Positions 2,257-28,234 of a stretch of 32,000 nucleotides of DNA are shown here, piece by piece. Numbering within the stretch: position 1 is the stretch's first letter; each line of letters begins with the position of its first letter. Origin of the DNA: Dehalococcoidia bacterium (lineage in GTDB: Bacteria; Chloroflexota; Dehalococcoidia; Lucifugimonadales; JADFKI01). Made by a program: the position numbers and the translations under genes. The notes beneath the pieces were generated by a model. That model made no database searches and was not told the origin of the DNA. It saw nothing but the letters and a program-made list of their open reading frames with translations. The stretch is taken from assembly GCA_963665605.1 (NCBI GenBank), contig OY762409.1:3491436-3523435 (forward strand). The letters run 5' to 3'.

Positions 2257-2391
2257 CTGATCAGGCTCCGTGCCAGTGCAGTGCGTCGTTCGCATTCAGA
2301 TGCGTTGTGGCTACGTGTCTCTGAACGCAAGGGATGAACGACCGCTCAGTATGTGCTCTAATCGCTAAGTGTTTCATAATCTCGATATGTG

Positions 2392-2406: not shown

Positions 2407-2595
2407 AGCGACTTGTTGTTTCATCAATGCGTACCAGAAATTCGACTGAGGCATATAAATTTGACGCTAGTTCAATATGATGAAGTCTTTATATTTCTAC
2501 TAGCCTGTGCCTTCAGTTGGATACAGGGCACAGTCTACTTCCGAGGCAATTGTGTACGATGCGACCTGAGATGGACTCGGTCCAAGTTCCATGGG

Positions 2596-2916
2596 CTATC
2601 TGACTTGGCCCTTCGAAGCCACGTGACGGAAGGCAATCCGTCGGGAACCTACTGTGAAGATGGCGTCCCCTCCTTTGCCGCTAAGTACCCCTGTGCCTAC
2701 TGTCTGTAACGCGTGTACTCCTATAATTGGTGCCCTTGTTGGTCTACCCTGGAACATCAGGTATTGCTCTGCCCCATATGGTCTGGTCAATGCGATGCTG
2801 AGATAGTCTACATCGTCGTTTACGGCGCCAACAGTACCACTCTGGCATGCTTGCGCCTTGCAAGAATCGAATTTAGTATCGGTATGCTTGTACTTCAGTC
2901 CTTGCTGTCCGCTCAT
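2596..2916 (-). CDS. Hypothetical protein (doubtful ORF in an AT-rich gap)
   Basis: 106-aa ORF whose composition is not the R/S/P-rich type of the antisense artefacts seen elsewhere. It has no recognisable family and no SD sequence upstream of the ATG. Its codons mostly end in A or T, unlike neighbouring genes. Confidence 0.2.
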   Translation of the reverse strand: MSGQQGLKYKHTDTKFDSCKAQACQSGTVGAVNDDVDYLSIALTRPYGAEQYLMFQGRPTRAPIIGVHALQTVGTGVLSGKGGDAIFTVGSRRIAFRHVASKGQVR

Positions 2917-3184
2917 TTGAGGTGCTGCCGAGGTGCGAATTGACAGCGAAAGATTGCTATGCGCAGCTACTCGGCGCTAACTATGCCATTGCACCTCATG
3001 GCAGGAGTCCTCCCGATAACCTGGTCATTCCCTGTCTGTCATGTCTCGGCGCATACGGCTGTGGCAGCTTGCACAGTCTCGTCGGACTGCTGCCCTAGGA
3101 TTATTGACGGCACCCGCCTCAGTGCGTACTATCGGCAGCAGCAGTACAGGGCATCACTTCGAGGTTGCAATCAGGAGGTAGCGA

Positions 3185-4750
3185 GTGAAGTACGACTACA
3201 TCGTCATCGGCGCAGGTTCGGCGGGAGCAATCCTTGCCACAAGGCTCTCTGAAGACCCAAACATCTCGGTGCTTCTGCTGGAAGCGGGTCAGGACTATCC
3301 GGACATTGACAGCCTGCCAGAGGAAGTCAGGCACAGCTACGAGTCCACAAAGAGCATCTGGGACAGTGACCACAACTGGCAGTACACGGCGCGCGGCACC
3401 TCGGAGGCCGAGATTGAGATTCCACGAGGCAAGGTGACCGGCGGCTCCAGCGCCATCAACGGTACGGTCTTCCTGCGCGGCATCCCTGAGGACTACGACA
3501 ACTGGGCGGAATGGGGCAACGACGAGTGGAACTTCCAGCAGCTTGTACCCTACTTCAACAAGCTGGAGACCGACACTACCTACCAGGACGACCCCGGTGA
3601 CTTCCACGGCGCCAACGGCCCAATCATCTGCCGCCGCTTCATGCAGGACGAATGGCGTGAGGGCAACAAAGCCTGGTTCGAGGCATGGCGGGAGAGTGGT
3701 CAAGGTTACTGCGAGGACCATAATGCGCCCGGCACAACGGGTGTTGGTCCCATACCCCTGAACAATCCCAATGGCATCCGCTGGTCCACGTCCATCGGAT
3801 ATCTTGGCCTCTCGCGCCACCGCCTGAATCTCACCATCAGGGCGAACGTGACCGTCAAGAAGGTTCTCTTCGATACTACCGGTGACAGCCCCAGGGCGAC
3901 GGGAGTCGAGGCGGTCTCTGACGAAGAATCCTTCGTCGTTGAGGCTGATGAGATCATCCTGAGCGCAGGCGCGATTGGTTCACCACAGATACTCATGCTC
4001 TCGGGCATTGGTCCGAGCGACCACCTCAGAGAACACGGCATTCGGACGGTAATCGACTCGCCCGGAGTGGGACAGAACCTAGCCGACCATCCCCTCCTCA
4101 GTATCCTGTGGGCGACGAAGCCGGACGTCGAGTTAGAGCGCTTCGTGCCCAACGCTCAGCTTGTCGTGCGTTACTCTGCCGAAGGCTCGCCTCTTGAGAA
4201 CGACATGATCGTGTATCTCTCAGCCGCCTCCGGGGTAGATCGCAAGCACGGCGGAGCGCACACCGACGTCGTTGGAATGGGCGCCGGCCTCGGGCTAAAC
4301 CTGGCGCACTCCAAGGGCGAGTTGCGACTTCGTTCCGGCGACTACCGGGACCATCCTTACCTCGATTACAACCTCCTGGACCACGAGGAAGACCTGCGCA
4401 GGTACAGAGATGGTGTGCGCCTGGTGGTCAGCCTCGAAGATCATCCGGCAATGGCTGCTATGATCGACAAGAGGGTCTATCCGGAGGATTCAGATCTGGA
4501 GTCGGACGATGCGCTGGACCTATGGATGAAGACGTGGGTTGGGACGGGCCACCATATCTCCTGCACCGCCAAAATGGGACCGAGGTCAGACCCGATGGCC
4601 GTCGTGGATCAGTACGGCAAGGTTTACGGCGCGGAGGGACTGAGGGTGGTGGACGCATCCATCATGCCTGAGTGCGTCCGCGCAAATATCAACGTCACCG
4701 TGTTGATGATTGGCGAGCGCATCGCAGACCTCATCAAGCAGGGGAAGTGA
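3185..4750 (+). CDS. GMC-family FAD-dependent oxidoreductase (choline/alcohol dehydrogenase-like)
   Basis: N-terminal FAD fold YDYIVIGAGSAGAILATRLSEDPNISVLLLEAG. GMC signature GKVTGGSSAINGTVFLRG. C-terminal active-site region GTGHHISCTAKMG...VVDASIMP. GTG start with AGGAGG 6 nt upstream. Confidence 0.95.
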   Translation: MKYDYIVIGAGSAGAILATRLSEDPNISVLLLEAGQDYPDIDSLPEEVRHSYESTKSIWDSDHNWQYTARGTSEAEIEIPRGKVTGGSSAINGTVFLRGIPEDYDNWAEWGNDEWNFQQLVPYFNKLETDTTYQDDPGDFHGANGPIICRRFMQDEWREGNKAWFEAWRESGQGYCEDHNAPGTTGVGPIPLNNPNGIRWSTSIGYLGLSRHRLNLTIRANVTVKKVLFDTTGDSPRATGVEAVSDEESFVVEADEIILSAGAIGSPQILMLSGIGPSDHLREHGIRTVIDSPGVGQNLADHPLLSILWATKPDVELERFVPNAQLVVRYSAEGSPLENDMIVYLSAASGVDRKHGGAHTDVVGMGAGLGLNLAHSKGELRLRSGDYRDHPYLDYNLLDHEEDLRRYRDGVRLVVSLEDHPAMAAMIDKRVYPEDSDLESDDALDLWMKTWVGTGHHISCTAKMGPRSDPMAVVDQYGKVYGAEGLRVVDASIMPECVRANINVTVLMIGERIADLIKQGK

Positions 4751-4940
4751 TGTCCGGTGCCTGACGCATCACTCTGGAGGAATACAGTCTGTGCAAAGCA
4801 CGGAGCGCAACGGAGGGGTGGTCGGATAATCAAGGCTTGGAGTATCCGAGTGGGACGGATATATTCTAGGTGTGCACGCATCCGCGAGGTGGGAGATGTC
4901 CCTGATTGTTGCCAAGTTGCCAGTGGCCGTACTGCGAAGC

Positions 4941-6323: not shown

Positions 6324-6552
6324 GAGACAAAGCTACTCAATACCCGGTGACAAAGCAATAGAAGCTGCGGCGCGTAGAGAGGCGTGTCCTTGACCACCTG
6401 AGCAGTTCTGGGTTAGATTCAACGCCATATCCAGTTGACGGAAGACTATTCTGCGGAGCACGCTGTTCGCGCGTGCCACGCTCCGACTTTCGGCAGGCCA
6501 ACTAACCTCAGCATCACGCTACTTTGCAGATCACCAGAGAAGGAGAATCATC

Positions 6553-7314
6553 ATGCCGTTCTACGAAAGTGGCTCCAGCCGTATCTACTATGAAGAAGTT
6601 GGGTCGGGATTCCCTCTACTGATAATTCCGGGCGGAGGGCTTAATTCCACCGTGGCGTCGCTTGATACCTCGGTGCCCTTCAACCCAATGAAGACTTACC
6701 GGGACGACTTCCGATGTATCGCCGCCGACCTGCGCAATGCTGATCTGGGGCAGTCCAGCGGACCACTGGAGATCGACGGGCCCTGGGATGCCTACTCAGA
6801 AGACCAGCTTGGTTTGATGGACCATCTGGGCATTGATGAGTTCCTGGTCATGGGCTTCTGCATAGGCGGGCCGATGATCCACAATCTACTCAAATTAGCC
6901 CCGGAGCGCATCGTCGCGGCAGCAATGATGCAACCCAGCGGCTTCAATCCGGAAGCGCCGGATATTTTCTATCAGAACAATACAGCGCGGTGGGGGCCAC
7001 CACTCTGCGAAAGGCGTTCAGAAATCACATCGGGCATGGTCCACGACTTCCTGACCAGCATGTACACTGACCGCGCAGATTTCGTTTTCACCGTTTCCTG
7101 CGATTTCGTGCGTAACCTGCAGACTCCACTGCTGATAGCACCAGACGATGTGCCTGCGCACCCATACGCCTGCGCGATGGAGGTTGCCGATCTCGCCCCG
7201 AACTCCGAGGTTACTATCTTTCCATGGAAGGACTCGCAGGAGCACATCGACGAGGTCGTAACCCACGCCCGGCGTTTCCTGAAGACCCATGAGCCGGTAG
7301 CTGCGACTACCTAA
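6553..7314 (+). CDS. Alpha/beta-fold hydrolase with Cys in the nucleophile elbow
   Basis: YYEEVGSGFPLLIIPGGG oxyanion region. The elbow reads VMGFCIGGP (G-x-C-x-G), like the Cys nucleophile of dienelactone hydrolase. GAAGGAG RBS. Confidence 0.85.
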   Translation: MPFYESGSSRIYYEEVGSGFPLLIIPGGGLNSTVASLDTSVPFNPMKTYRDDFRCIAADLRNADLGQSSGPLEIDGPWDAYSEDQLGLMDHLGIDEFLVMGFCIGGPMIHNLLKLAPERIVAAAMMQPSGFNPEAPDIFYQNNTARWGPPLCERRSEITSGMVHDFLTSMYTDRADFVFTVSCDFVRNLQTPLLIAPDDVPAHPYACAMEVADLAPNSEVTIFPWKDSQEHIDEVVTHARRFLKTHEPVAATT

Positions 7315-7401
7315 ATATCCGGCGCCGCTGAGGCTCACGAGTTCTTAGTGGGCAGTGGGAAGGATCGGGAGATCTGCCAATTGGCCGGGAGCGACGGTAG
7401 T

Positions 7402-8172
7402 TCAGTTCGTTCTCCACTGCTCGGCATCGTCTTTGGGTTCGTACCCTATCAGATCGCGCGAGTTCGAGATGTCCCAGATGCGCCAGGTATTGTTGGATAC
7501 GCCGTAGAAGATCGCGAACCTGACGGTATCGGGTGCATCTATGCACTTGCTCACTAACTGCACCAGGTCGCGGTGTGACAGCAGGGTGGCGAAATGTCGA
7601 AGGTCTTGCGGTCTGCCCTCGCGGTTCAACGTTCCAATTCGAAGGCAGATTACTGACAGGCCGAAGTGGTCGGAGTAGTATCGTCCCGCCGCCTCTCCGA
7701 ACGCTTTGCCGATTCCGTAGGGTCCGTCCGGCCGTATGGGCATGTCCGCTGTCACGCGAGGGAAGGTCGCCGGGTCCAGTCCGTCATACCTGCCGGCAAC
7801 TATGGATGCGTAAGGCTCGTCCTCCTCGTAGTTGCCGGTCGCATGGTTGGAGCTGGCGAATATCACGCGCTTTGCCCCGGCCCGTCGAGCGGCCTCAAGC
7901 GCGTTATATGTCGAAGGCAGGTTGTTCCGATAAACGACATCCCAGGGGCTGTCCTGGTCCGGCACGCTGGCGAGATCGATTACCGTGTCCACCCCGTCAT
8001 AGGCAGGCAGCACAGCATCGAGATCGGAAGTGTCGGCAACCAGGCTGGTAAAGCCGTCCGCTGCCCTGATATCTACACCGGTTACATTGTGCGAGTCCTT
8101 AAGGCCGTTCTGGAGCAGTCCTCCTATGAGTCCGGCCGCTCCCGTTATTAGCACGTTTTTCCCGTCAGGCAT
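7402..8172 (-). CDS. NAD-dependent epimerase/dehydratase-family SDR, uronate dehydrogenase (Udh)-like
   Basis: VLITGAAGLIGG Rossmann motif, RVIFASSNHATGNY, catalytic YxxxK in RPDGPYGIGKAFGE, and C-terminal LIGYEPKDDAE. This closely follows the Udh pattern as I recall it. Confidence 0.85.
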   Translation of the reverse strand: MPDGKNVLITGAAGLIGGLLQNGLKDSHNVTGVDIRAADGFTSLVADTSDLDAVLPAYDGVDTVIDLASVPDQDSPWDVVYRNNLPSTYNALEAARRAGAKRVIFASSNHATGNYEEDEPYASIVAGRYDGLDPATFPRVTADMPIRPDGPYGIGKAFGEAAGRYYSDHFGLSVICLRIGTLNREGRPQDLRHFATLLSHRDLVQLVSKCIDAPDTVRFAIFYGVSNNTWRIWDISNSRDLIGYEPKDDAEQWRTN

Positions 8173-8395
8173 GTGGTTCTCCCTCGAATCCGTGATCGTC
8201 TGGAGTCATTCCGGCATTTGGGCCGGGTGCAGGTCATACGATGGTGAAGAGTTCTCTCCTATGTGACATGGCGGTTCGCTGGGATGAGAGACCTCATGGT
8301 ATCTTTCATCAGAGTACCCACCAAGCGCCCGTGGTTACTATATCAAACGCCTTACGCTTCAGACTACGAATATCACGAGACAAGGAGGAGACAAG

Positions 8396-9253
8396 ATGCT
8401 TGCGGACCTGGTTGAAGTCACGACACCTGATGGAATCCCGCTGAGTGGCGCCTATTTCGCGCCGACAAGCACGGGTCGCTCACATTCGATAGATGCCATA
8501 CTGTTCTTTCATGGCGATGGCGGCAACTTCTACAGCAGCCTTTATCTCTGGATGGGGCAGCGCATGTCGGAACAGGGCATAGCGTTCCTGACAGCCAACC
8601 GCAGGGGCCACGACCACATCGCTGCCGGTGCAAGAGGAGGGCCGCTAGCGGGATATGCCTTCGAGTCTGTTGATGACTCGCGAGCGGACTTCGGAGCGTG
8701 GCTTGACTTGCTGCGTGAGAGGGGGCACCGCCGCATAGCCATCGGAGGGCACAGCGGTGGAGCCGTGCGTGCCGCCTATGCGCAGGCACGGGAGAAGTTC
8801 GCAAATGTAGTGGCGGTGATACCGGTGTCTCCCGGCGAGTATGACCACGAAGGAATTATTGCACTGCACGGGGATGACTTCGCGGAGCCGTTTGGGGAGT
8901 CTGAGCGGAACATCGCTGAGGGCCGCCCGGATACGCTGCTTCGTCCAGGAGTTCCCTGGGGGTCAACGTGGAGTGCGCGCTCCTTTGTGGACTGCTTCAA
9001 TCGGGACAACCGATACAGCGTGACCACCCACGGGGCAAACACGGGTTGCCCAACGCTGTTCATATTCGGCTCCGAAGAATGCGCCGTCGGTGGACAGCAG
9101 GAGCTTCCGGTGTGCGGCGCTGCGCGACGAAGCCTCGGTGCTGCGGGCTACGCGCACGTGGACGTAGTGGAAATTGACGGAGCCAATCACGGATACTTAG
9201 AACGTGAACAACAACTGTTTGAGACGATGTTTTCTTGGATCGGCGGGCTATGA
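8396..9253 (+). CDS. Alpha/beta-fold hydrolase
   Basis: ILFFHGDGGNFYS oxyanion region, GGHSGGA nucleophile elbow (GxSxG), conserved late GANHGY. AGGAGG RBS upstream. Confidence 0.85.
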   Translation: MLADLVEVTTPDGIPLSGAYFAPTSTGRSHSIDAILFFHGDGGNFYSSLYLWMGQRMSEQGIAFLTANRRGHDHIAAGARGGPLAGYAFESVDDSRADFGAWLDLLRERGHRRIAIGGHSGGAVRAAYAQAREKFANVVAVIPVSPGEYDHEGIIALHGDDFAEPFGESERNIAEGRPDTLLRPGVPWGSTWSARSFVDCFNRDNRYSVTTHGANTGCPTLFIFGSEECAVGGQQELPVCGAARRSLGAAGYAHVDVVEIDGANHGYLEREQQLFETMFSWIGGL

Positions 9254-9728
9254 CGGGCTGTGATCAACTATAAGCCCTGACACCGTCTCAAGAGTCCATC
9301 CTATCGAATCTGATCCGCCTCGGAATCGCACCTGCCTGACGGATTCACTTTGCTGGCTTTTGCAATGTACGTCTGCCCTCTGATCGCCTTCGGGTGGCAC
9401 GATCAGACCGTTAGAATCGAGAACGCCATCCCTCCTTTGGGAAACGCGGAGAGCTATTGAGTCGCGCCGTAATTTCTTACACCTGATGCGGGGTAGCGCA
9501 GCGGCGTAACTCAGTTGTGTTGGTACATTGCGAGCATCCTTTGCGAATGCAATATTTGCTCCTTTACAGAGATTTTGGTCGGCTGTAAAATCACAAGGGC
9601 GCAGAGTACGGGCGACAATCATTCGCTTATGTAAGGCTTGCTCAAGATTCACCTCCATCTATGCCGTTCGTCGAACTCGCATCTAATCGGGTCTTAGTAA
9701 CCCTACCTTCGAAAATTCAGCACGGGGA

Positions 9729-12224
9729 TTGTCTTTCACTATGAACCAAATACTCGAAAAAATGAGCTTGCTCGTAACGGTACGACCATACATTACGCTC
9801 GTTGTCTTGCTCGCTATTACCGTATTGCTTGCCGCTGGGACTACGCTGCGCGTACCTCCGACGGAAGGCGCAGATGTAGCTTTTCTTCCGCCCGGGCACG
9901 CCGTCGCCAATGCGGCGCAGGAAATAGATGAGCTATTCGGGGACTCCGGCGACGTGAGCGTCGTCACACTCATTTTCCGCGGAGATGCGCTCACACCAGG
10001 CGGACTCTCCCAGATGTCCGGCCTGATCAACAAGATTGTCAGCGACCCGGCTGTAGGTGGGTTGCTGGTACCCGCCGACCCGGTAATCGCACCCTCTTTT
10101 CTGGTTCAGGCTGCGCTCCAATTGGAAAACCTGGAGTCGATCACGCAGGCAGAAATCGACGCTGTCGGCAATGTCCCACAAATTGGAGGGGCTATCGCCG
10201 CGATGACCGGAACCGACACGGACGGTACACCGGTTGCGATTGCCAACATTAGCCTGAGTGATACGGGTGAGGAAAGGGTCAAAGACGCGGAGCGGAGGAT
10301 CAACGAGTTAGCGGTGGGGGATAGTGGTCCTCTAGCTGTGAGCAGTCTATCACCCGCGATAGTCGAGGACGAGTACAGGGAAGCCACGGAATCGGGAATG
10401 GGGCCGCTTATAGGACTGGCACTGCTACTGATAACGGGGCTGCTCTTCCTGTTCACTCGCACCATCTCTGATACGCTGCTGACGCTATTAGGGCTCATAC
10501 TGTCGTTGACCTGGATTATCGGGGCAGAGGGCTGGCTAGGCCCGGAAGGGATCGGCCTGATAGGGCCACCGAGTTCGCTCACTGCGATGGTCCCGGTCAT
10601 CATCATCAGCCTCACAGTGGATTACGCAATCCAGGCGGTCTCCCATTATCGCGAGCAGCGTGCTGAAGGCGAGCCGGTTATTCAGGCAGTACGCAACGGG
10701 CTTCGAAACGTGACTGTGCCGCTTACACTGGCAGCCGTCACGACGATCGTCAGCCTGCTGGCTACCCTGTTCTCGCCGATCGGGGTGATTGGCGACTTCG
10801 GCATCGTCGCGGGACTGGGCGTCGGGTTGAGCCTGATAGTGATGCTGACACTGATACCGGCGGGCAGGACGATCATCGATCGGCGGCGCGAGTCGCGCGG
10901 TACATTGCCGCCTCCTCGCCCGCTCGCGAATGCATTGCCTGGGGTTAGCCAGATGGCGGAGCAGTTGGGCAGATGGGTTACGCGCAGGCCGGCACCCTAC
11001 ATTGTCGTCGTAATCTTGATCACCATAGGGCTTGGGTATGCCGCAACCGGCTTGAAGTCGGAATTCAGCATCCGCGACATCCTCCCCAGAGGTGGAAGCG
11101 TGGTCGAGGACATGGACACCCTCGAAGCCGCTGTCGGTGGTTCGACTGAGATCGCAACCCTCCTTGTGAAAGCCGAGGCGACGGAAACCCGCACTCTTCT
11201 GAATCTCCAGGATCTGACTTCTTCCTTCGGGGATGAGAATCGCCGTCCGCGTGCAGCGGCAGGCCCGATCCAGACGTCATATTATGCACATCTGCGAGAC
11301 TGGATCGACGACTCCGGCGAGCCCGGCGACAAATACGACCCTGAGCTTGAAGCACTTTTCCACCAGGCTTCAGCCGAGGTAGAACTTGATCCGGCTCTGA
11401 TGCAGGAATTACTCGATAAGCTTGTCGCGAGAGAGCCGGAACTGGCGCGCTTCCTGGTCAACGATCCACAGGGCATAGACACAATGTTGCTGCAGTTCCC
11501 AACTTATCTGGGCGATCCGGAGCAGTCCAGGATGATTCAGGAGGAAACAGAGGCGCTATGGTTCGGCGATGACAGCCACGTCACGGCGACTTCACCTAGC
11601 ATCGTCGCAGTCGCGGTTACGGACCAGATTACCGACGGCCAGACGGAGTCAATCAGCACTACCATTGCTGTGGCGCTGGGCATCCTCACTATCTTCTTCT
11701 GGGTGACGCTGCGCCAGCCGGCTCTGGGATTCGTCGCTGTGGGGCCCATCGTCCTCGTCCTCGTCAGCGTGCTGGGCACTATGGCGCTGTTGGACATCCC
11801 CTACACACTTGTCACCTCGATTATCACCGCGTTATCAATCGGCATAGGTGTGGACTACACCATACATGTCATTCACCGATACAGGGAGGAATACTTCCGC
11901 CTGCGCAACCCGGAGAGAGCGGCGGTTCGAACACTCGCGACTACGGGTTCGGCGTTGCTCGGATCTGCGCTGACGACGGCCATGGGATTTGGAGTGCTGA
12001 TTGCCTCACCGTTGCAGGCGTCGCAGCAGTTCGGCATCACGGCGACAATTACCATCGTCTATTCGCTGATAGTCTCCATACTGGTCGTGCTGCCCGCGAT
12101 GGTGGTCTGGGGGGCGTACCAGAACATGAGGCTTCGCTCCTCGATTGAACGCATGTGGAGCGAGCTTGACGTGGCAATTGAGGATATACATCTCCGACAC
12201 GAGAGGGGAGAGGGCGCATCGTAG
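9729..12224 (+). CDS. RND-superfamily MMPL/HpnN-like (HAE3-type) lipid transporter
   Basis: 831 aa with 1+5 / 1+5 TM topology and two large extracytoplasmic loops. Duplicated proton-relay Asp-Tyr motifs occur in the equivalents of TM4 and TM10 (SLTVDYAIQ and GIGVDYTIHVIHRY), as in MmpL/HpnN proteins. The track start at 9729 is TTG; the ATG at 9741 is an alternative. Confidence 0.9.
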   Translation: MSFTMNQILEKMSLLVTVRPYITLVVLLAITVLLAAGTTLRVPPTEGADVAFLPPGHAVANAAQEIDELFGDSGDVSVVTLIFRGDALTPGGLSQMSGLINKIVSDPAVGGLLVPADPVIAPSFLVQAALQLENLESITQAEIDAVGNVPQIGGAIAAMTGTDTDGTPVAIANISLSDTGEERVKDAERRINELAVGDSGPLAVSSLSPAIVEDEYREATESGMGPLIGLALLLITGLLFLFTRTISDTLLTLLGLILSLTWIIGAEGWLGPEGIGLIGPPSSLTAMVPVIIISLTVDYAIQAVSHYREQRAEGEPVIQAVRNGLRNVTVPLTLAAVTTIVSLLATLFSPIGVIGDFGIVAGLGVGLSLIVMLTLIPAGRTIIDRRRESRGTLPPPRPLANALPGVSQMAEQLGRWVTRRPAPYIVVVILITIGLGYAATGLKSEFSIRDILPRGGSVVEDMDTLEAAVGGSTEIATLLVKAEATETRTLLNLQDLTSSFGDENRRPRAAAGPIQTSYYAHLRDWIDDSGEPGDKYDPELEALFHQASAEVELDPALMQELLDKLVAREPELARFLVNDPQGIDTMLLQFPTYLGDPEQSRMIQEETEALWFGDDSHVTATSPSIVAVAVTDQITDGQTESISTTIAVALGILTIFFWVTLRQPALGFVAVGPIVLVLVSVLGTMALLDIPYTLVTSIITALSIGIGVDYTIHVIHRYREEYFRLRNPERAAVRTLATTGSALLGSALTTAMGFGVLIASPLQASQQFGITATITIVYSLIVSILVVLPAMVVWGAYQNMRLRSSIERMWSELDVAIEDIHLRHERGEGAS

Positions 12225-12250
12225 GCGGCACGCTCCGGAGGTTTTCCTAC

Positions 12251-13303
12251 ATGTTGAAGAGTCTCTCGCAACTTCGTGAACTATCCACAGGGCTGAAGTC
12301 CGCGTACCGCGGCTTCGACACCCACCTCCGCACGAGAGAATTCGAAGGCTGGACTGACAGGGCGAGCGTGGAGGATGACGGTGCGATCGGCTACGACCAC
12401 GCTGAAACCGTCAAGGAATACTATGACCTTTGCGGTGAGTTCATGTTGTTCGGTTGGGGCGAATCCCTACACTTCGCACCGCTATCGCCCCGCGAAAGCT
12501 TGGAGGACTCCAAGATACGGCATCAGCGACTGATGATTGCCAAATTGGAGTTGCTCGAAGGGATGACAGTCATTGATATTGGCTGTGGGATAGGTGGCCC
12601 GATGCGCCGCGTCGTCCGGGAGGCCGGAGTCAGGGTAGTTGGAGTCAACAACAACGAAATCCAGCTGAAGAAAGCGAAGTCGTTGAATACTGAGGCGGGC
12701 ATCGCCCACATGGTTGATTATAAGGCTTGCAGCTTCATGGATATGGGCACCGTCGCTGACGACACTTTTGATCGGGGCTACGCGATAGAGTCGACTTGCC
12801 ATGCGCCGGATAAGGCGGGAGCGTTCGCCGAGATATACCGAGTGCTGAAACCCGGCGCGCTTTTCTGGGGTCAGGAAATGTGCCTGACGGACGAGTTCGA
12901 CCCCGACGACAGGCGACACCGCGCCATCAAGCGGGAGTTGATGCACGGGATCGCGCTCAAGGACATAGCGACGATGGGCGAGGTCAACCGCGCTCTCGAA
13001 GCGGCGGGATTCCAGGTCATCGAGGGGAGAGACCATGCCGTCGAGGGGGACAGTCAGACCACGCCTTGGTATCAGCCGATGGAAACCCGGCACGGAACGC
13101 TAGGCGACGCTCTGCGTAGGACTCCACTGGGCCGCAAGTTGATGATGTGGGCATCTAGGCTTGCAGAGGCAGTGGGGGTGTTTCCGAAAGGCTCCTCGGA
13201 CGTAATAGGTCTGATGGATCGTACCGCCAACGCCTATGTCGAGGGTGGCAGGGCGGGCATTTTCACACCGCTGTACTGTTTTCTGGCTCGCAAGCCGCTT
13301 TAG
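12251..13303 (+). CDS. Sterol 24-C-methyltransferase (SMT/ERG6) family SAM-dependent methyltransferase
   Basis: All SMT signature regions are present. Region I: YYDLCGEFMLFGWGESLHFAP (12419-12478). SAM motif: VIDIGCGIGGP (12569-12601). YAIESTCHAP (12779-12808). Sterol_MT_C-like tail: TPWYQPM...LGRKL...PKGSSDV...EGGRAGIFTPLYCFLARKP. It aligns along its length with yeast ERG6 as I recall it. GGAGG RBS, 26 nt after the RND stop codon. Confidence 0.9.
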   Translation: MLKSLSQLRELSTGLKSAYRGFDTHLRTREFEGWTDRASVEDDGAIGYDHAETVKEYYDLCGEFMLFGWGESLHFAPLSPRESLEDSKIRHQRLMIAKLELLEGMTVIDIGCGIGGPMRRVVREAGVRVVGVNNNEIQLKKAKSLNTEAGIAHMVDYKACSFMDMGTVADDTFDRGYAIESTCHAPDKAGAFAEIYRVLKPGALFWGQEMCLTDEFDPDDRRHRAIKRELMHGIALKDIATMGEVNRALEAAGFQVIEGRDHAVEGDSQTTPWYQPMETRHGTLGDALRRTPLGRKLMMWASRLAEAVGVFPKGSSDVIGLMDRTANAYVEGGRAGIFTPLYCFLARKPL

Positions 13304-13354: not shown

Positions 13355-15382
13355 CTAGAAGTTAATCTCGTGCCGCTGCTCGGCGATGCGGAACTTCAGC
13401 TTCTTGCTTGGCTTCATGGATGGCAGCGGACTGAACTTGAGCTTGTAGTCGCCAGGCGACACCTTGAGCGTAAAGTAATGCGCGACCATGAGCACATTGA
13501 CGGCGAGCTGCGTTTCCATCCACCGCGAGCCGAGACAAATATGCGTGCCCAGTCCGTAGGGCGCGTATCCGGGGCTGTGGTGCTCGTTGCGCGGTGGCAG
13601 GTATCGGTCTATGTCGAATGTGGTCGAGTCGGGAAAGAACTCGTCCATGAAATGGGTCGCCGCCTGAGCGATAACGAGCTTCGCTCCCAACGGTAGCTGA
13701 TAACCTTCGACCATGCACGAATTCATCACATGCCGCATAGACACAGGCACTATTGGGTAGAGGCGCAGGCTCTCCATGAGGAAGCGATGGGTGACATCGA
13801 TCGAGGACGGAGTGAGGTCTTCGGGATTCGGGTCGCCGTTCTCGAATAGTGCGTCGGCCTCTTCTTGGATCCTGGCGTAGATTTCAGGTTGCGAGGCCAT
13901 TGCGTATAGCGCGAAGCTGAACGCGTCGCCAAGGTACACACTGGCAATCAAAGCCGCCGATAGAGCGAATCGCAGGTTCGACTCCGGGTAGAACTGTGGG
14001 TCGCTCGCGTGTAGGCTCAGAATGTCGTCGGCAAGATTTCTAGAAGCGTCAGCCCGCTGAGCGGGCGTATGCACGCTCTGTATTCGTTCCAGTAAGATGT
14101 CCACCGATTTCGCGCGGCGTCTCATGCCCGGGGTTTTCAGCATGAATTTGGGCAGAGCCTTCACGATGTGAGTGCTGAGCGCCCGCTCCTTGTACTCCGC
14201 CAAGTCGTCAAAGATGTCCTGAGAATCGACGCTGACAAAGAGCGGAGAAATCTGTGAGTTTATCATTCGGCGGCACATGCGCGTGGCGGGGTAGGCGTCT
14301 CCAACCGTCCACTCTGCCATATGTTTCCGCGCGTAATTGATTAGCTGGTCCATCTCGCCCATTAATCTGTTGCGAGAATATGCCGGCGACAAGGACTTGC
14401 GGAGGCGAAAATGGTCTGCCCCGTCCATCGAAGGCAATACCCCGGACGCGCCATAGACCTTTTCGAAGTCGGAAAAGTAGTCCCTGGTTCTCAGATGCAG
14501 GCGTCCTTGCCGATGCACCCAGCGATTCGTGTCTGCCCCTGCCAGGACTATTATCGGCTCGGTTAACGGAGGCCGCAGTTCGAATACTGGGCCGTACTCG
14601 CGCGCGAGGTCCGCGAAGAGCGCGGGGACGTTTCCGGTGCGAATATGCGGATTGAACAGCAGCTTGCTCAGAGAGACGACAGGGATTTTCCTGGTGAGGC
14701 TGGATTGTCGGAGCGCCGGACCCGCGAGGTTGTGGGAGACTGCATTGGTGATTGCCCGTCCGATCAAGTCAATCTTGGAAATGGCTTGGATACGCGCTTC
14801 CACCTCGTCATCCAACTGGAATATGAAGCGCAATACGTCGCACGTATTGAGCAGGCCGATGATGATGACCTCTCTCGGATAGGGAATCACATCATTGAAC
14901 AGCACCCTTCTGATGCGCGATGCGATGAACTCAGTCGCGGTGCCGTCTTCGTCATCGAAGTTCATATCTGCTCGACCGACAGTTCGGGATAGCGTCCAGA
15001 ACTCTCCGTCGTGATGCTCAAGGATATTCAGATGGACAAGTCGGTCCAGAGTCAGCTCGATGATCGACTCTGCACGAGGAGCGAGCCTTTCGATCCAGTA
15101 CTGCGCGTCCCGTTGAGTCGTTTCCTCCGCAATCGTCTTGAGGATGGGATCGAGGACAGGATCGCCGACTTCGGTCTGATCCAGAAGAATCAGGGAATCC
15201 CTGTCCGTGTCAATGCGAGAAATGAGCGATAACTCAGCGAGTACGGCGCCAATGACGGCGCAGTTTAGGTCCCAGCCCGGGACCTGATGGAAGTATCCGG
15301 TCTCCTCGTTGAGGAGCATCAGAATCAACTCTTCCGGCAAGCTTAGAGGCTGAGTCGTCACACCTTCCATTAAGAGAGTCAC
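13355..15382 (-). CDS. Fusion protein: N-terminal GPP34/GOLPH3-like domain plus C-terminal cytochrome P450
   Basis: The first ~230 aa (about 14693-15355) match the GPP34 pattern: LPEELILMLLNEETGYF...AVIGAVLAELSLISRI...DPVLDPILKTI...WIERL. The remainder is a P450 with ExxR (ESLRLYP) and the haem loop PYGLGTHICLG. The Cys-616 codon TGT is at 13535-13537, checked by hand. GTG start with AGGGAG 8 nt upstream. Confidence 0.9.
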   Translation of the reverse strand: MTLLMEGVTTQPLSLPEELILMLLNEETGYFHQVPGWDLNCAVIGAVLAELSLISRIDTDRDSLILLDQTEVGDPVLDPILKTIAEETTQRDAQYWIERLAPRAESIIELTLDRLVHLNILEHHDGEFWTLSRTVGRADMNFDDEDGTATEFIASRIRRVLFNDVIPYPREVIIIGLLNTCDVLRFIFQLDDEVEARIQAISKIDLIGRAITNAVSHNLAGPALRQSSLTRKIPVVSLSKLLFNPHIRTGNVPALFADLAREYGPVFELRPPLTEPIIVLAGADTNRWVHRQGRLHLRTRDYFSDFEKVYGASGVLPSMDGADHFRLRKSLSPAYSRNRLMGEMDQLINYARKHMAEWTVGDAYPATRMCRRMINSQISPLFVSVDSQDIFDDLAEYKERALSTHIVKALPKFMLKTPGMRRRAKSVDILLERIQSVHTPAQRADASRNLADDILSLHASDPQFYPESNLRFALSAALIASVYLGDAFSFALYAMASQPEIYARIQEEADALFENGDPNPEDLTPSSIDVTHRFLMESLRLYPIVPVSMRHVMNSCMVEGYQLPLGAKLVIAQAATHFMDEFFPDSTTFDIDRYLPPRNEHHSPGYAPYGLGTHICLGSRWMETQLAVNVLMVAHYFTLKVSPGDYKLKFSPLPSMKPSKKLKFRIAEQRHEINF

Positions 15383-15660: not shown

Positions 15661-16695
15661 ATGGTTACCAGACGCAGAGAATTCACATACGTTCAGTCGC
15701 CCGATCCCTTCCCCGAAGGTTGGTACTTCGTCGCTACTCGAAAGGCCGTACTAAAGGCCAAGCTCATTCAGAAGACTTGGATGGGCGAGAACATCGTTGT
15801 CTGGAGTGACAAGAATGACCGCGTCTGTGTAGCCGAAGCCGTCTGTCCACATCTTGGAGCCGATCTCGGACCATCAGCCGGGGGCAGCATACGCGACGGA
15901 CGGCTGTTATGTCCTTTCCATGGCTACGAGTTTGACGCCACTGGACAATGCGTCGGCACTCCTTTTGCCCCTCCTCCCAGGGCAGCGAAGCTGCGAGTCT
16001 TCGAGACGCAGGAGATTCTCGGCCTGATCTTCGCATGGTGGGGCATCGGGGGACGTGAACCGCAATGGCGCCTACCCGATGATACTTTGGGGGAAGTTGG
16101 ATGGGGCGAATTCATAATCAACACCCTCCGTTTTCCCGGTCATCCACAGGAAACAGCGGAAAACTCGGTAGATCTGGCACATCTCCGCTATGTGCACGGC
16201 TACGATAACGTGAATCCAATCGTGGAGGCGGATGTGGACGGCCCACGCCTGAAAACTCGCTTCGACTTCAAGAGAACACGAACAATCGCGGGCGCCGTAA
16301 ACCTCACCTTCGATATTTCTGCCAGCGCAACCATCGTAGGTCTTGGCTATTCGTTTGTGGAGGTACGGGAGCATTCGATTGGCATGGATTTGCGCCTGTG
16401 GGTGCTAGCGACGCCAGTCGATGGGAATCTCATTGACATGACTCTGGTTTCACAGGCGCGGGAGATACGAAAGCCGAAGCGAATATTTGCAGGCCTTGGG
16501 TTTCTCCCCGTGGGTCTCCGCGCTCCCATTATCAATAGATTCATGGCCTCTCAGCAAAAGCAGGACGTTCTTCAGGACGTGGTTATCTGGAGCAAAAAAC
16601 AGTACCGGTCCCGCCCGCGACTCTCGCGCTCTGACGGCAAAATCATGCCGTTCAGGCACTACTGCACCCAGTTCTACCCCGACCCAGAGGATTAG
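15661..16695 (+). CDS. Rieske [2Fe-2S] non-haem-iron oxygenase, KshA/Neverland-like
   Basis: Rieske motif CPHLGADLG-x13-CPFHGYEF (C62, H64, C84, H87; 15844-15921). Mononuclear-iron motif ENSVDLAHLRYVH (DxxHxxxxH; 16171-16197). GAGGG RBS. Confidence 0.9.
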   Translation: MVTRRREFTYVQSPDPFPEGWYFVATRKAVLKAKLIQKTWMGENIVVWSDKNDRVCVAEAVCPHLGADLGPSAGGSIRDGRLLCPFHGYEFDATGQCVGTPFAPPPRAAKLRVFETQEILGLIFAWWGIGGREPQWRLPDDTLGEVGWGEFIINTLRFPGHPQETAENSVDLAHLRYVHGYDNVNPIVEADVDGPRLKTRFDFKRTRTIAGAVNLTFDISASATIVGLGYSFVEVREHSIGMDLRLWVLATPVDGNLIDMTLVSQAREIRKPKRIFAGLGFLPVGLRAPIINRFMASQQKQDVLQDVVIWSKKQYRSRPRLSRSDGKIMPFRHYCTQFYPDPED

Positions 16696-21985: not shown

Positions 21986-23488
21986 TCAATCGTCGCCTAT
22001 CTGATACCCCGTGATCCGTGCTTCATGGGCCGCATCCGCGTACTCGGCTCGCCTGGCAATTGCTTTGATCAGACCCTTGAATATCCAGCCGTGAATGGGA
22101 TAGAGCGAGTACCAGTAGAGCAGACCTGCCAGGCCCCTGGGACTAAAAACCGCCTTCTGCTCAAGTATAGTGATTCCTTCCTGGACCTCGCGAATGTCGA
22201 ACTGGAGCCATGCGTTGCCGGGCAGCTTCATCTCAGACCTCAGCCGCATGAATCGATCCGTCTCCAGCGCTTCCACCCGCCAGAGGTCAAGCGCGTCGCC
22301 AACTCGCAGGTCGTCCGGATGGCGGCGACCTCTACGCAGACCGACCCCACCAAGCATCAAGTCGATCATGCCTCGTAACCGCCAATCCCAATTTCCGAAA
22401 TACCACCCTCGCTTTCCGCCTATTCCTATACAAATCCCATACACATTCGTGGCAGATGCGGCAATATGGACACGGCGGCGTTCCACTATCAACCCATTGC
22501 GAAAGTCCAGTTGGACGAATTCATGAGGTTCCGAAGCACTTCCGACGGCATCCCTCCAGGAAGTCTCGACGCGTCCCTCGTCCAGTGCCCTCGTAACCTC
22601 TTCGATCGCCGAGTCATAGTCCTTTGGCACGATATGAGGAAAGAGAGTGCTAGCGAGACCGTCAGTCACAACAACGTCGTTGCGAAGTCCTTCGATCAGG
22701 GGTGCGGCGATTGAAGCGTGAATCGGGGTCATCCAATGCACCCAGTATGACGATAAGCGGGGAGTCAAGACTGGGACAGCTAGTAGCAGCCGCTTCAGCC
22801 CTCTCGCTTTTGCATATTTGAGTATCAGGTCCCGATAGGTCGTCACGCATCGACCACCAATCTCGATGACGCGGCCCTTGCTGCCCGGGACATTCAGGGC
22901 GGCAACAAGATAATCCAGAAGGTCATCGATGGCGATGGGTTGAATGCGGGAGTAGATCCATTTCGGGCACACCATGACGGGGAGTCGTTCGACAAGATGG
23001 CGGATGATTTCGAACGAGACACTTCCCGTCCCAACGATTACAGCAGCACGGAATTCGGTGACGTGTACGCTGCTCTCCCTAAGTGCCTGTCCGGACTCCT
23101 GACGGGAGCGCAGGTGCGTTGAGAGTTCGCCATCCGGCTCTCCCAATCCACCCAGATAGATGATGTGCCGGACGCCCGCCTCCTTCGCAGCGTGCCCAAA
23201 GGCGCGCGCGAGTTCAATGTCCAACTCGCGAAACCCTGGCCCACTTCCCATGCTGTGGATCAGGTAGTAGGCAGTATCTATACCATGCATCGCTTCCTGA
23301 AGTGCCCGAGAGTCTCTGACATCGCCCACGGAAACCTCGACCTGTCCTGCCCATGGACGGGACGCGATCCGAGACCTGCTGCGCACAAAGACACGAACGC
23401 TGTATCCTTCCTCAATCAGACGAGGAACCAGTCTCCCACCAATGTATCCCGTAGCTCCGGTGACAAGAATGTTCCTAGATCCTCCCAT
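21986..23488 (-). CDS. Atypical SDR (NAD(P)H-binding, NmrA-like) fused to a DUF2867 domain
   Basis: ILVTGATGYIGGRLVPRLIEEGYSVRVFVRS Rossmann region. C-terminal DUF2867 pattern LDLWRVEALETDRFMRLRSEMKLPGNAWLQFDI. The track start (23503) is TTG; the ATG at 23488 lies 7 nt after GGAGG. Confidence 0.9.
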   Translation of the reverse strand: MGGSRNILVTGATGYIGGRLVPRLIEEGYSVRVFVRSRSRIASRPWAGQVEVSVGDVRDSRALQEAMHGIDTAYYLIHSMGSGPGFRELDIELARAFGHAAKEAGVRHIIYLGGLGEPDGELSTHLRSRQESGQALRESSVHVTEFRAAVIVGTGSVSFEIIRHLVERLPVMVCPKWIYSRIQPIAIDDLLDYLVAALNVPGSKGRVIEIGGRCVTTYRDLILKYAKARGLKRLLLAVPVLTPRLSSYWVHWMTPIHASIAAPLIEGLRNDVVVTDGLASTLFPHIVPKDYDSAIEEVTRALDEGRVETSWRDAVGSASEPHEFVQLDFRNGLIVERRRVHIAASATNVYGICIGIGGKRGWYFGNWDWRLRGMIDLMLGGVGLRRGRRHPDDLRVGDALDLWRVEALETDRFMRLRSEMKLPGNAWLQFDIREVQEGITILEQKAVFSPRGLAGLLYWYSLYPIHGWIFKGLIKAIARRAEYADAAHEARITGYQIGDD

Positions 23489-23953
23489 CTGTCCACCTCC
23501 CAATTCCCGCGTTGGAGTGCCCCATCCAAAAATGCTGGATTGAAAATACCTGCTAACTCCTCTCGGATACTATGTCTGCTGTCTTGGTCTGAATGTATCT
23601 GAAGCGAATTCTATTCTTGGCTGCGCGCGCCATCTGCGATAGAAAGATGAACCGCGTTGTCCCACGTACAATGTGCCATATATCCATTATACCGACGCCC
23701 TTCGGTTCGAGTATGATCCGTATGGCAGTCGCAGATGGGATCGCTGTTGATCTCATTAGGTGGAGCGCCGTTCATAGCTATACGTTCATTCAATCTTCAA
23801 TTCAGAATCGGCGGCACGACGGATTGGAAATATGCGGAGCAGGGATGCGAATTCCTTGGTAGTGTCATGTCTGTATGATGTGATGGAGAATTGCCTGAAC
23901 AGTGAGCGAAACCAGAACCAACCGGCTAGGAAGCAGTATCAAAGGAGGAAGAC

Positions 23954-26908: not shown

Positions 26909-28234
26909 TCAGACAGGGTGTGGCAGGGAGCGCAGTCGCTCCAGGGCTTCGCCGAACTGTGTCCCCCAGGGCCAGCCCCGGGGTAGATGCAGAGTGAGGC
27001 GGCGTGCCGAGCGTGTGAGCCGTCCGGCCAGGGAGAAGAAGCGTCGTCTGAGGGTCTTTGTGGTCACCACCTGCTCAGCCAGACCGATGCGCGCGGTCCA
27101 GCGGGCAAGGTTGTGTGCCATCACTTGCACGGCCATCCAGGCAGCGTTGGCTGCGAAGCGACCCGATGGCAGGTGGTTCAGTCCCACACCGTACTTGAGG
27201 TCGCGTATGGCGTTCTCGATCTCGGCGTGTCTGCGGTGATCGGCTTCCAGTTGGAGAGTGTCGCCCTGTCGGTCGGTGATGAAGGCGTGATAGCTGTAGC
27301 TGGCAAACAGCGCCAACTGGGAACCGGGCGTGGGCCTGACCCTGCGGACGATCAGTCGCACCGGCGCTGCGTCAGGCTCACCTCCGAAGGGAGTGTAGGT
27401 CGTCTCGGCAACGTCGGCTGCGCCCTCCATCCAGTAGGGTATGGGCGTCCAGTCAGCCTCGGGTATGTCCTCTATGAGATTGCGCAAGCTCCGATGCTGT
27501 CGGACGGTGATGGAGAAGCGCACATCGTTGTCGCGGCAGACGCTGACGATGTCGTGGGTGTAGAAGCCACTGTCGGCCCTCACGGTGAGCGCTCCGGTGG
27601 CTCCTGAGTAGCGCACTCTGCTCAGCGTCTCACGCAGGAAGTTGGCTGCACCCCGTACGGTGTTGGCCCGGCCCTTGCGCAGTCTTGCCATCAGCACGTC
27701 TCCTGTTCCTGCGGCGACGGCAAGCAGCGGGTGATAGCCTCTCTGACCGGCGTAGTTGTGCTCGCTGGCTCCCTCCTTTGCCAGTCCGTAGGTCTCGCAG
27801 ACGGTGGAGTCCAGGTCGATCGTCAGAGGCGAGTCCCCGGGTCCTGCCCCCGCGGACCAGGCTCGCGCCAGCAACTCCCGGCTCACACGGTCCAGTTGTC
27901 GCACGTGTCCCCAGCGGAAGCTGCGCAGGAATGTCCCCAGTGTGGACGGAGCCTTGACCGCGCAGCCCAGCACCCGTTCGGTGCCCCCGGACCGCAGCGC
28001 GTCCGCGTCGTCTATGCAATCGCCCCCTGCCAGCGCCGATGCCGCCAGGGTCAGTATCTTGTCTCCCGCATTCGCCCGACCAGGCGCATCCCCCAGGTCA
28101 AGGTGGCTGTCCACAAGTTCGCTCAGACCCAGACGCCCGGCGAGCATGACTGGCAACATCAGTCCGGCATTGGCCACCAGGCGGTGGTCGTCGAAGGTTA
28201 CTTGGATGCGGTCAGGACGCTCGGATGCTATCAT
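26909..28234 (-). CDS. IS1380-family DDE transposase
   Basis: 441 aa. The N-terminus FDDHRLVANAGLMLPVMLAGRLGLSELVD and the length are characteristic of IS1380 transposases. GAGGAG lies upstream. Confidence 0.9.
   Translation of the reverse strand: MIASERPDRIQVTFDDHRLVANAGLMLPVMLAGRLGLSELVDSHLDLGDAPGRANAGDKILTLAASALAGGDCIDDADALRSGGTERVLGCAVKAPSTLGTFLRSFRWGHVRQLDRVSRELLARAWSAGAGPGDSPLTIDLDSTVCETYGLAKEGASEHNYAGQRGYHPLLAVAAGTGDVLMARLRKGRANTVRGAANFLRETLSRVRYSGATGALTVRADSGFYTHDIVSVCRDNDVRFSITVRQHRSLRNLIEDIPEADWTPIPYWMEGAADVAETTYTPFGGEPDAAPVRLIVRRVRPTPGSQLALFASYSYHAFITDRQGDTLQLEADHRRHAEIENAIRDLKYGVGLNHLPSGRFAANAAWMAVQVMAHNLARWTARIGLAEQVVTTKTLRRRFFSLAGRLTRSARRLTLHLPRGWPWGTQFGEALERLRSLPHPV

Follow-up and report, generated by a model that had tools for sequence, protein, structure and literature searches.

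The methyltransferase gene, its partners and its origin

The window analysed here is a stretch of 32,000 nt from the genome of a Dehalococcoidia bacterium (contig OY762409.1, positions 3,491,436 to 3,523,435). At 12251..13303 on the + strand it carries a gene with an ATG start for a 350-aa methyltransferase of the sterol methyltransferase (SMT)/ERG6 family, assigned below to a group that we designated clade A. The start codon lies 10 nt 3' of a GGAGG Shine-Dalgarno sequence (12236..12240, +), located in the 26-nt gap behind the stop codon of an 831-aa resistance-nodulation-division (RND) transporter of the MMPL/HAE3 type (9729..12224, +), the first gene of an operon with the SMT gene. Convergent with the SMT gene, with the stop codons 51 nt apart, is a gene for a 675-aa GPP34-P450 fusion protein ('GPP34_L'; 13355..15382, -). 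Divergent from the P450 gene, across a 278-nt intergenic region, is a gene for a 344-aa Rieske non-heme-iron oxygenase of the KshA type (15661..16695, +). An earlier note on this DNA, made from the sequence alone, had described the SMT gene and its coupling to a lipid transporter; it had overlooked the atypical Region I of the SMT (M65, L73), the GPP34-P450 fusion downstream and the KshA-like Rieske oxygenase beyond.

Every SMT motif quoted in the earlier note was located in the 350-aa open reading frame (ORF): YYDL-x6-FGWGESLHFAP (Y57-Y58-D-L, six residues, then F67-GWGESLHFAP77), I108-DIGCGIGGP117, Y177-AIESTCHAP186 and the C-terminal F338-TPLYCFLARKP349. Region I reads F64-M65-L66-F67-G-W-G-E-S-L73-H-F, and Region II, which binds S-adenosylmethionine (SAM), is intact. 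The SAM site (D109, G111, G113, G116, P117) and the Region III glutamate E180 (E195 in yeast ERG6) are present, as in the SMT family. In Pfam, the protein matched Sterol_MT_C (PF08498) with 59.6 bits, above the cut-off of 21.7, and also class-I methyltransferase domains (Methyltransf_11, 59.4 bits). BLASTP aligned it with yeast ERG6 from residue 29 to residue 349, through the C-terminal tail, at 35% identity (206 bits). The best match to a non-SMT sequence in the PDB reached 80 bits and covered the core only (residues 52-204), and such matches were generic small-molecule methyltransferases. Full-length homology to ERG6 thus exceeds homology to non-sterol methyltransferases (206 versus at most 80 bits), and the earlier assignment as an SMT/ERG6 homologue was borne out. 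The ERG6 query was identical to the database S. cerevisiae protein at 382/383 positions, so that ERG6 numbering is valid. We know of no solved SMT structure. An AlphaFold2 model of the window protein, built from 66 sequences, scored pLDDT 87 and pTM 0.87, and its nearest solved folds were AtmM, RebM, MitM, TleD, SpnF, GPP C-methyltransferase and the cyclopropane (CFA) synthases; TleD, GPP methyltransferase and the CFA synthases are olefin C-methyltransferases with SMT-like chemistry. With yeast ERG6 and plant SMT1 (EC 2.1.1.41) the protein shares homology over its full length, Region II, E195, H90, W85, W286 and the FTP...ARKP tail, and presumably C-methylation through a carbocation. It differs from the yeast enzymes in being only 33-35% identical, in the replacement of key sterol-contact residues and in its bacterial operon context. 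The window ORF thus encodes a member of the SMT/ERG6 family.

The gene is native to a sponge symbiont of the SAR202 group (Dehalococcoidia, Chloroflexota). The window is collinear over 21 kb with a contig of SAR202 bin90 (MPND01000021.1; 93.3% nucleotide identity) and over 13 kb with an Aplysina aerophoba metagenome contig (Ga0209021_1000393; 93.4%). The earlier note had raised eukaryotic contamination and chimeric assembly as concerns; composition and collinearity both point to a native gene. A sponge or algal contaminant, or a eukaryotic SMT joined to bacterial DNA, would explain the homology to eukaryotic enzymes and nothing further. The same 21-kb order at 93% nucleotide identity in independent A. 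aerophoba assemblies argues that the gene is neither, as does identical gene order in independent short-read and long-read assemblies that include Mb-scale contigs and chromosome-labelled records. The Shine-Dalgarno sequence, the 26-nt operon spacing, the lack of introns and the separation of clade A from yeast and plant SMTs also speak for a bacterial gene, and the GC and GC3 of the SMT gene equal those of its neighbours, a transposase being the sole outlier. Independent assemblies together with GC and GC3 rule out contamination or chimerism for practical purposes, and we consider either extremely improbable.

More than 580 relatives of the SMT were found in species-representative genomes (one genome per GTDB species). 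The best 80 of these were nearly all from Dehalococcoidia/Chloroflexota metagenome-assembled genomes (MAGs), many on Mb-scale contigs or chromosomes, and the top relative was that of 'SAR202 cluster bacterium bin90' (96% amino-acid identity). A database protein on a 3.93-Mb contig is 100% identical to the window protein, and the 90% identity cluster includes a member annotated 'MAG: Chloroflexi bacterium'. In the JGI/GenBank metagenome collection, all related loci with a traceable origin (76/76) came from sponge metagenomes, with A. aerophoba, Petrosia ficiformis and Sarcotragus foetidus as hosts. Outside the Chloroflexota there are a few carriers with the labels Alphaproteobacteria, Acidimicrobiales, Thermodesulfobacteriota or Dadabacteria, plus a Nitrospira-like one. 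Identities of 71-79% between their proteins and that of the window imply horizontal spread among sponge symbionts. Four such clade-A SMTs (L026, L051, L069 and L073, with Alphaproteobacteria, Thermodesulfobacteriota, Acidimicrobiales and Dadabacteria labels) are 76-78% identical to the SAR202 protein; this equals the closeness between SAR202 genomes and points to recent cross-phylum transfer.

The transporter matched MMPL (151 bits), Sterol-sensing (50.7 bits, cut-off 22.3) and the Patched sterol-sensing domain (SSD; 40.6 bits) in Pfam, and has an SSD-like C-terminal transmembrane bundle. Patched-1 was its first PDB sequence match (5e-12), followed by MmpL4/5, HpnN and NPC1; the NCBIfam HAE3 model scored 216 bits, and VDY motifs are present in both halves. 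BstA of Methylococcus and HpnN are likewise RND lipid transporters linked to polycyclic triterpenoid pathways, with distant sequence similarity. The window transporter is neither (BstA, 32.1 bits against the NF045600 cut-off of 1400; HpnN, 102 bits against 752); it belongs to the HAE3/MMPL group, unlike these two, and no BstB or BstC partners were seen.

The 675-aa protein comprises a GPP34/GOLPH3 domain (residues 15-216; PF05719, 106 bits) and a P450 domain (residues 248-663; PF00067, 118 bits) with the heme-Cys motif YGLGTHICLG. This is exactly the architecture of GPP34_L, a group of 656 proteins that is described as confined to bacterial symbionts of sponges and as occurring in 80% of the Dehalococcoidia from sponges (PMC11706023, Microbiome 2025). 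The P450 is not CYP51: CYP51 chains in the PDB matched residues 416-651 only (1.8e-17), and CYP102-like chains matched better (4e-21). The Rieske oxygenase matched PF00355 (63 bits), KshA_C (PF19298, 78.8 bits) and KshA in the PDB (1e-24), and appears to be of the KshA type, with the cluster motif CPH...CPFH (CxH...CxxH) and the iron motif E-x3-D-x2-H-x4-H; SdmA was rejected, since it scored 33.7 bits over the Rieske domain only against the NF052579 cut-off of 600. Catalytic or cofactor motifs are retained in all four proteins.

The four genes form a conserved cassette that is linked across phyla. In a set of 110 clade-A loci, each flanked by 4.5 kb or more on either side, the GPP34-P450 gene was present at 79 (72%), an RND transporter at 75 (68%) and the Rieske oxygenase, at either end of the cassette, at 72 (65%); all three partners occurred together at 59. 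Other flanking genes of the window recur in just 1-9 loci. The transporter was orthologous to that of the window at 65 loci and of another HAE3 lineage, the Dadabacteria type, at 10. The Dadabacteria-type transporter had no tblastn similarity to the window (E<=1e-3) and is a non-orthologous replacement. The close coupling to a lipid transporter proposed in the earlier note, seen here as a 26-nt spacing and an adjacent RND gene in 75/110 loci, is therefore real and broader than that note saw. No report of the cassette, or of SMT-transporter coupling, was found in the literature searched.

A separate SMT clade with an altered sterol pocket

A profile search gathered the yeast sterol 24-C-methyltransferases, the plant cycloartenol C-24 methyltransferase and two more bacterial groups. 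In a neighbour-joining tree of 100 representatives (bootstrap on 37 taxa), in which the eukaryotes were yeast and one plant only, clade A, bacterial clade B (about 343 aa), bacterial clade C (about 341 aa) and yeast each had 100% bootstrap support. Clade A was defined as the window protein plus all proteins with 56% or more identity to it. When a library was clustered at 50% identity, a clear break in the scores separated 354 bits (at 51% identity) from 281 bits (at 44%). Identity to ERG6 was 35% for clade A (maximum 38%) compared to 42% for clades B and C, and clade A was 44% identical to clade B and 41% to clade C (38-44% to the two for the window protein itself). These comparisons indicate that clade A is a separate SMT subfamily, so far traced only to sponge metagenomes, and that the window protein is not of the CHARACTERISED kind. 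The term 'eukaryote-type' used in the earlier note does not hold, as the protein falls in a bacterial, sponge-symbiont-restricted clade outside the eukaryotic SMTs. Its placement within the SMT family stood up in the tree, yet in a clade separate from the yeast and plant enzymes.

Several residues that shape the sterol pocket are changed throughout clade A. Among 68 clade-A representatives (ERG6 numbering), Y81 is Met in 68/68 (M65 in the window protein), F89 is Leu in 68/68 (L73) and T219 is Leu in 68/68. Y223 is replaced by Gln in 67/68, G250 by Ala in 67/68 and S87 by Glu in 64/68, and position 249 is Ile in 65/68 (I234). E82 is mostly Val or Leu, and T78 is never retained, being Ser, Gly or Asn (G62 in the window protein). 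The SAM site (D125, G127, G129, G132, P133), E195, H90, W85, W286 and the C-terminal G/F/P residues are retained in clade A, and the canonical Y/F81, E82, F89, Y223 and G/D249 are retained in clades B and C.

Twenty-five residues are reported to be conserved in all functional SMTs, among them F89, T78 and L341, and residues 81 and 249 line the docked sterol (Brown & Welander 2025, preprint). The window protein has 22 of these 25, T78, F89 and L341 being replaced, and clade A overall lacks two to three. Region I, 84-GWGxxFHF-91 in the canonical form, reads GWGESLHF, with L73 at F89 and G62 at T78; Y74 is retained, as are G147, Q154, D189, G217, G268, W286, G333, G352, F357 and P359. L341 corresponds to M322, a position occupied by Met in 34 and by Leu in 33 of the 68 representatives. 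Gly249 is needed for propylation, Phe81/Phe83 promote it, and of 11 substitutions tried at position 249 ethylation survived only with Ala, Ser, Asn and Thr (Brown & Welander 2025). The window protein does not have the propylating combination of Gly249 with Phe at 81 and/or 83, as it carries I234 and M65, position 83 being F67. The link to 24-isopropyl products drawn in the earlier note is not supported, as Gly249, reported to be required for propylation, is Ile here.

That the altered residues are so strictly conserved speaks for a functional enzyme whose pocket differs, and not for decay. A precedent for a remodelled Region I with changed regiochemistry is the nematode sterol C-4alpha-methyltransferase (STRM-1/4-SMT; PMC6997595). 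That enzyme shares just 21% identity with Erg6p and has lost the signature aromatics of Region I, whereas clade A is 35% identical and retains F83, W85, H90 and F91.

A canonical sterol C-24 methyltransferase that makes 24-methyl, 24-ethyl or even 24-isopropyl products, exported by the adjacent transporter, would fit the recognisable Sterol_MT_C domain and all four SMT regions, the retention of 22/25 'functional' residues (including G84, W85, H90, F91, E195, G217 and W286) and F83, which favours multiple methylations (Brown & Welander 2025). We consider such an enzyme unlikely. F89 is Leu in 68/68 and T78 is never retained, although both are conserved in every functional SMT, and the side-chain contact Y81 is always Met, with Gln at Y223, Leu at T219 and Ile at position 249. 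The C-24 methyltransferase function claimed in the earlier note is not supported: T78, F89 and L341 are replaced, Y81, T219, Y223 and position 249 are changed across the clade, and a clade member was, as set out below, probably inactive when assayed. The window SMT probably does not perform the textbook C-24 reaction, as far as its residues allow a prediction.

Clade-A enzymes and neighbouring sterol genes

Bacterial SMT homologues have been reported before, as the earlier note said. Desmosterol and 24-methylenecholesterol are methylated by SMTs of various bacteria, uncultured sponge symbionts among them, and three of these SMTs make 24-isopropyl side chains; their clusters hold a squalene monooxygenase-oxidosqualene cyclase fusion (SMO-OSC), CYP51, ERG24, sdmA and sdmB (Brown et al. 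2023, PMC10070321). SMT1/ERG6 was enriched in Ircinia symbiont MAGs, and ERG24-CYP51-LSS clusters were found in ten phyla including Dehalococcoidia (Kelly et al. 2022). The bare presence of a bacterial SMT in a sponge symbiont, including Dehalococcoidia, is therefore not new. The window SMT has its family, domain pair and bacterial origin in common with the verified bacterial SMTs of Brown et al., as well as the hosts A. aerophoba, P. ficiformis and S. foetidus. It differs in that the verified enzymes appear to be those of clades B and C (about 42% identical to ERG6, with Y/F81, E82, F89, Y223 and G/D249), and in that the window cluster consists of the RND transporter, GPP34-P450 and KshA-like Rieske oxygenase in place of SMO-OSC, CYP51, ERG24 and SdmA/B.

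In some genomes, clade-A and clade-B genes adjoin each other. In the region 363-9144 of two Nitrospira-like A. aerophoba contigs, L097 (= Ga0209021_1000731) and L094, the gene order is SMO-OSC (a fusion of 1220 aa), clade-B SMT, clade-A SMT and GPP34-P450. The OSC of L097 is 89% identical to a protein of a sponge 'Nitrospira sp.'. With F81/F83 and a Gly-rich 248-250 region, the clade-B SMT resembles the published propylating enzymes. Compared with the window protein, the clade-A SMT of L097 shows 71% identity; to ERG6 it is 122/347 = 35.16% identical, and a value of 35.16% is listed in Supplementary Data 1 of Brown et al. 2023 (PMC10070321) for JGIcombinedJ30088_100008359, 'A. aerophoba 10000835 2 of 2'. 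For the clade-B SMT of L097, the identity to ERG6 is 42.7%, compared to 42.36% for the propylating '1 of 2' enzyme, and the gene order agrees. Given the exactly equal identity to ERG6 and the same gene order, the L097 clade-A SMT very probably belongs to the same clade as 'A. aerophoba JGIcombinedJ30088_10000835 2 of 2', and appears to be that enzyme. Other '2 of 2' enzymes in that study, 34.5% and 35.6% identical to ERG6, fit the same pattern. The '2 of 2' locus lies in a Nitrospira-like genome that has a cluster for de novo sterol synthesis, as opposed to SAR202 for the window.

This match adds to the evidence against a canonical C-24 enzyme. The enzyme with 35.16% identity presumably cannot be in the 'functional' set, since the L097 protein has L89, whereas F89 is conserved in all functional SMTs. 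A lack of activity in E. coli lysate may be falsely negative, which would leave room for canonical activity; clade-A genomes also carry a canonical clade-B or clade-C SMT, which suggests a division of labour between the paralogues. SAR202 genomes that have the clade-A cassette possess a canonical clade-C SMT as well, encoded by a stand-alone gene, and no OSC was found near this gene in two such genomes.

The probable inactivity of a clade member in vitro and the tight operon coupling to the transporter would also suit an inactive SMT paralogue turned into a sterol-binding subunit, or a regulatory or chaperone subunit, of the transporter or the oxygenases. We regard this as very unlikely. D109-x-G-x-G-x-x-G-P117, E180 (E195), H74 (H90) and D174 (D189) are essentially invariant across the 68 representatives, as expected under selection for catalysis.

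Relatives of the cassette vary in composition. An FAD amine-oxidase-fold protein of about 460 aa was present at 44 clade-A loci, never without the cassette, and is absent from the window; examples are L061:13349-14737, L004:14435-15793 and L005:15161-16519 (all -), with 41 other loci. Its PDB relatives are LkcE (3e-28) and 2b9w (8e-10), a 'putative aminooxidase' in the PDB. We take 2b9w to be the P. acnes fatty-acid double-bond isomerase. The FAD protein is a facultative fifth cassette member and possibly a side-chain double-bond isomerase or desaturase. Within 10 kb of clade-A SMTs, ERG4_ERG24 reductases were found at 8 loci and clade-C SMTs at 7, in SAR202 relatives. In Dadabacteria (L001/L002, 6012-13821; GCA_009837925.1), a clade-A SMT lies beside a different HAE3 RND transporter and a Rieske oxygenase, together with a glutathione S-transferase, an FA_hydroxylase-family protein (ERG25/ERG3 superfamily) and a 3-beta-hydroxysteroid-dehydrogenase-like short-chain dehydrogenase/reductase (SDR), with no GPP34-P450. 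From its gene content this locus appears to be a variant cassette with eukaryote-style sterol-core enzymes. In SAR202 relatives, a lipoprotein-like 270-aa protein and a major facilitator superfamily (MFS) transporter recur 5' of the cassette, at about 15 loci each (for example L049:3814-4626 and L045:5849-7327, both +). The sole similarity of the 270-aa protein was to mycobacterial LprG (E 0.26); the two genes recall the LprG-P55 lipid-transport pair, yet this match is too weak for a claim. Two clade-A SMT copies (L041 and L050), 110 kb apart on CBDEGP010000002.1 (Dehalococcoidia), are not near cassette genes.

A methyltransferase for non-sterol lipids (a hopanoid, another isoprenoid, polycyclic or acyclic, or an unsaturated acyl chain), within a general lipid tailoring and export module whose likeness to sterol enzymes is a matter of descent only, would be in keeping with the remodelled pocket, with a transporter roughly as near to HpnN and MmpL as to Patched, with a P450 that is not CYP51 and a Rieske oxygenase that is not SdmA, with the lack of an OSC in the window and with the relationship of the facultative FAD protein to LkcE and the fatty-acid isomerase. 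Such a module seems to us quite unlikely, because the SMT-specific C-terminal domain is retained and conserved, the clade-A SMT and GPP34-P450 adjoin SMO-OSC and a canonical SMT in L097, and ERG4_ERG24 and clade-C SMTs lie near the cassette in SAR202 relatives. A C-terminal domain of the KshA type is moreover associated with steroids, and OSC-CYP51-ERG24 clusters are reported in sponge Dehalococcoidia.

Other genes of the window touch the cassette little. The bacterial neighbours named in the earlier note, the RND/MMPL transporter and an IS1380-type transposase (26909..28234, -), were both confirmed; the IS1380 element is real, yet lies 13.6 kb from the SMT gene and is hence not adjacent. It is a complete insertion sequence (26653-28361; DDE_Tnp_1_4) with 21-nt imperfect inverted repeats at 26653-26673 and 28341-28361 and a GC content of 65%, compared to about 57% for the window. 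With this distance and unrelated genes between, there is no evidence that it mobilises the cassette. The SDR genes at 7402..8172 and 21986..23503 were rejected as SdmB (weak N-terminal matches only), and a glucose-methanol-choline (GMC) oxidoreductase (3185..4750, +) was rejected as cholesterol oxidase, being MftG/choline-dehydrogenase-like (354 bits, just below the mycofactocin MftG equivalog cut-off of 387). None of these, nor a phosphotriesterase-family protein (28832-29827, +; 223 bits), is conserved beside the cassette. A 625-aa ORF (18703-20580, +) had no Pfam or NCBIfam matches even at E=1, and an 87%-identical relative was found in 1/85 related loci. A sigma-70-like promoter match 5' of the transporter gene, TTTACA-17-TAAAAT (9563..9591, +), is a weak candidate for the promoter of the transporter-SMT operon and by itself not significant (1 site compared to 3.7 expected by chance); promoter and terminator scans of the window were at chance level, and it had no Rfam matches.

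A putative sterol tailoring module and sponge sterol chemistry

Taken over the sequence evidence, it is on balance probable that the cassette is a sterol tailoring and trafficking module in which the methyl acceptor or the outcome of the clade-A SMT reaction differs from that of standard delta-24(25)/24(28) methylation. A membrane sterol, self-made or host-derived, would be oxidised or desaturated by the Rieske oxygenase and the P450, with the GPP34 domain as a putative peripheral membrane anchor of the latter. The SMT would then move the SAM methyl group onto an olefinic carbon of that sterol through the carbocation mechanism of the family. Given the remodelled pocket (Y81M, F89L, T219L, Y223Q, 249I), the acceptor or regiochemistry may depart from the delta-24 methylation of desmosterol or 24-methylenecholesterol. 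Transfer of the substrate or product from the cytoplasmic membrane to the outside, or the reverse, would fall to the RND pump, which is driven by protons. We infer the sterol substrate, the altered specificity, the order of the reactions, the GPP34 anchoring and the direction of transport. Sterol-related context is given by the SSD/Patched-like RND transporter, the KshA-like oxygenase and the SMO-OSC beside a clade-A SMT in L097. The OSC clusters reported in sponge Dehalococcoidia (Kelly et al. 2022) suggest, by analogy, that the sterol could be self-made.

Several points weigh against such a module. The 71%-identical clade-A member of L097, apparently one of the enzymes assayed by Brown et al. 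(2023), seems to be inactive on desmosterol and 24-methylenecholesterol, and a dead enzyme or one with a non-sterol substrate would behave likewise. The Sterol-sensing match of the transporter may be a general trait of HAE3/MMPL transporters. No OSC, CYP51 or ERG24 genes are present in the 32-kb window, and 23/110 clade-A loci (21%) have no cassette partner within reach. The neighbour-joining method and the narrow eukaryotic sampling of the tree count on the same side.

For GPP34_L, the published proposal is PI4P (phosphatidylinositol 4-phosphate) binding with modulation or evasion of phagocytosis, and rare GPP34-Rieske fusions were also reported (PMC11706023). The words sterol, methyltransferase and MMPL are absent from that paper, and GPP34, P450 fusions and RND transporters are not mentioned in the SMT papers. 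In contrast to the PI4P role, adjacency to the clade-A SMT at 72% of SMT loci points to sterol chemistry and suggests that GPP34_L is a sterol-tailoring P450 in which the GPP34 domain is possibly a mere membrane anchor. What is new is the combination of a clade with a rewired pocket and a conserved cassette that joins an SMT to a lipid pump and to the GPP34-P450 marker.

A more specific and speculative proposal, to which we assign a low probability, is that clade A is the missing unconventional side-chain SMT of sponge holobionts, alkylating a position other than C-24/C-28. A candidate would be C-26 of delta-25 sterols such as codisterol, leading to the aplysterol or 26-methylstigmastane skeleton, or a cyclopropane-forming variant. 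Such an enzyme would work alongside a canonical clade-B or clade-C SMT, with the membrane-tethered P450 and the Rieske oxygenase preparing the olefin. The changed pocket residues are exactly those that contact the side chain, and clade-A hosts include A. aerophoba, with aplysterol as its major sterol, and P. ficiformis, with 24,26-dimethyl sterols; a 26-SMT has been explicitly described as undiscovered. Against this, clade A is also common in symbionts of Ircinia, Coscinoderma and Rhopaloeides. To our knowledge, these hosts are not known for 26-methyl sterols. Were the proposal true, the 'symbiosis factor' GPP34-P450 would turn out to act on sterols, and part of the sterols diagnostic of sponges would stem from the symbionts and not from the host.

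The main molecular evidence for animals in the Cryogenian comes from steranes with alkylated side chains (24-isopropylcholestane, 26-methylstigmastane), and as of 2025 the location of the responsible SMTs, in the sponge, its bacteria or both, was stated to be not known. Sponge-associated SAR202 bacteria and, via cross-phylum transfer, other symbiont phyla carry a second SMT lineage with rewired sterol contacts, and the GPP34-P450, a sponge-symbiosis hallmark with a wholly different proposed role, is tied here to an SMT and a lipid pump. If the cassette acts on sterols, its enzymes would be candidates for unexplained steps in sponge sterol side-chain chemistry, GPP34_L would be re-interpreted as a sterol enzyme, and sterol modification or exchange would be suggested as a core trait of sponge symbiosis.

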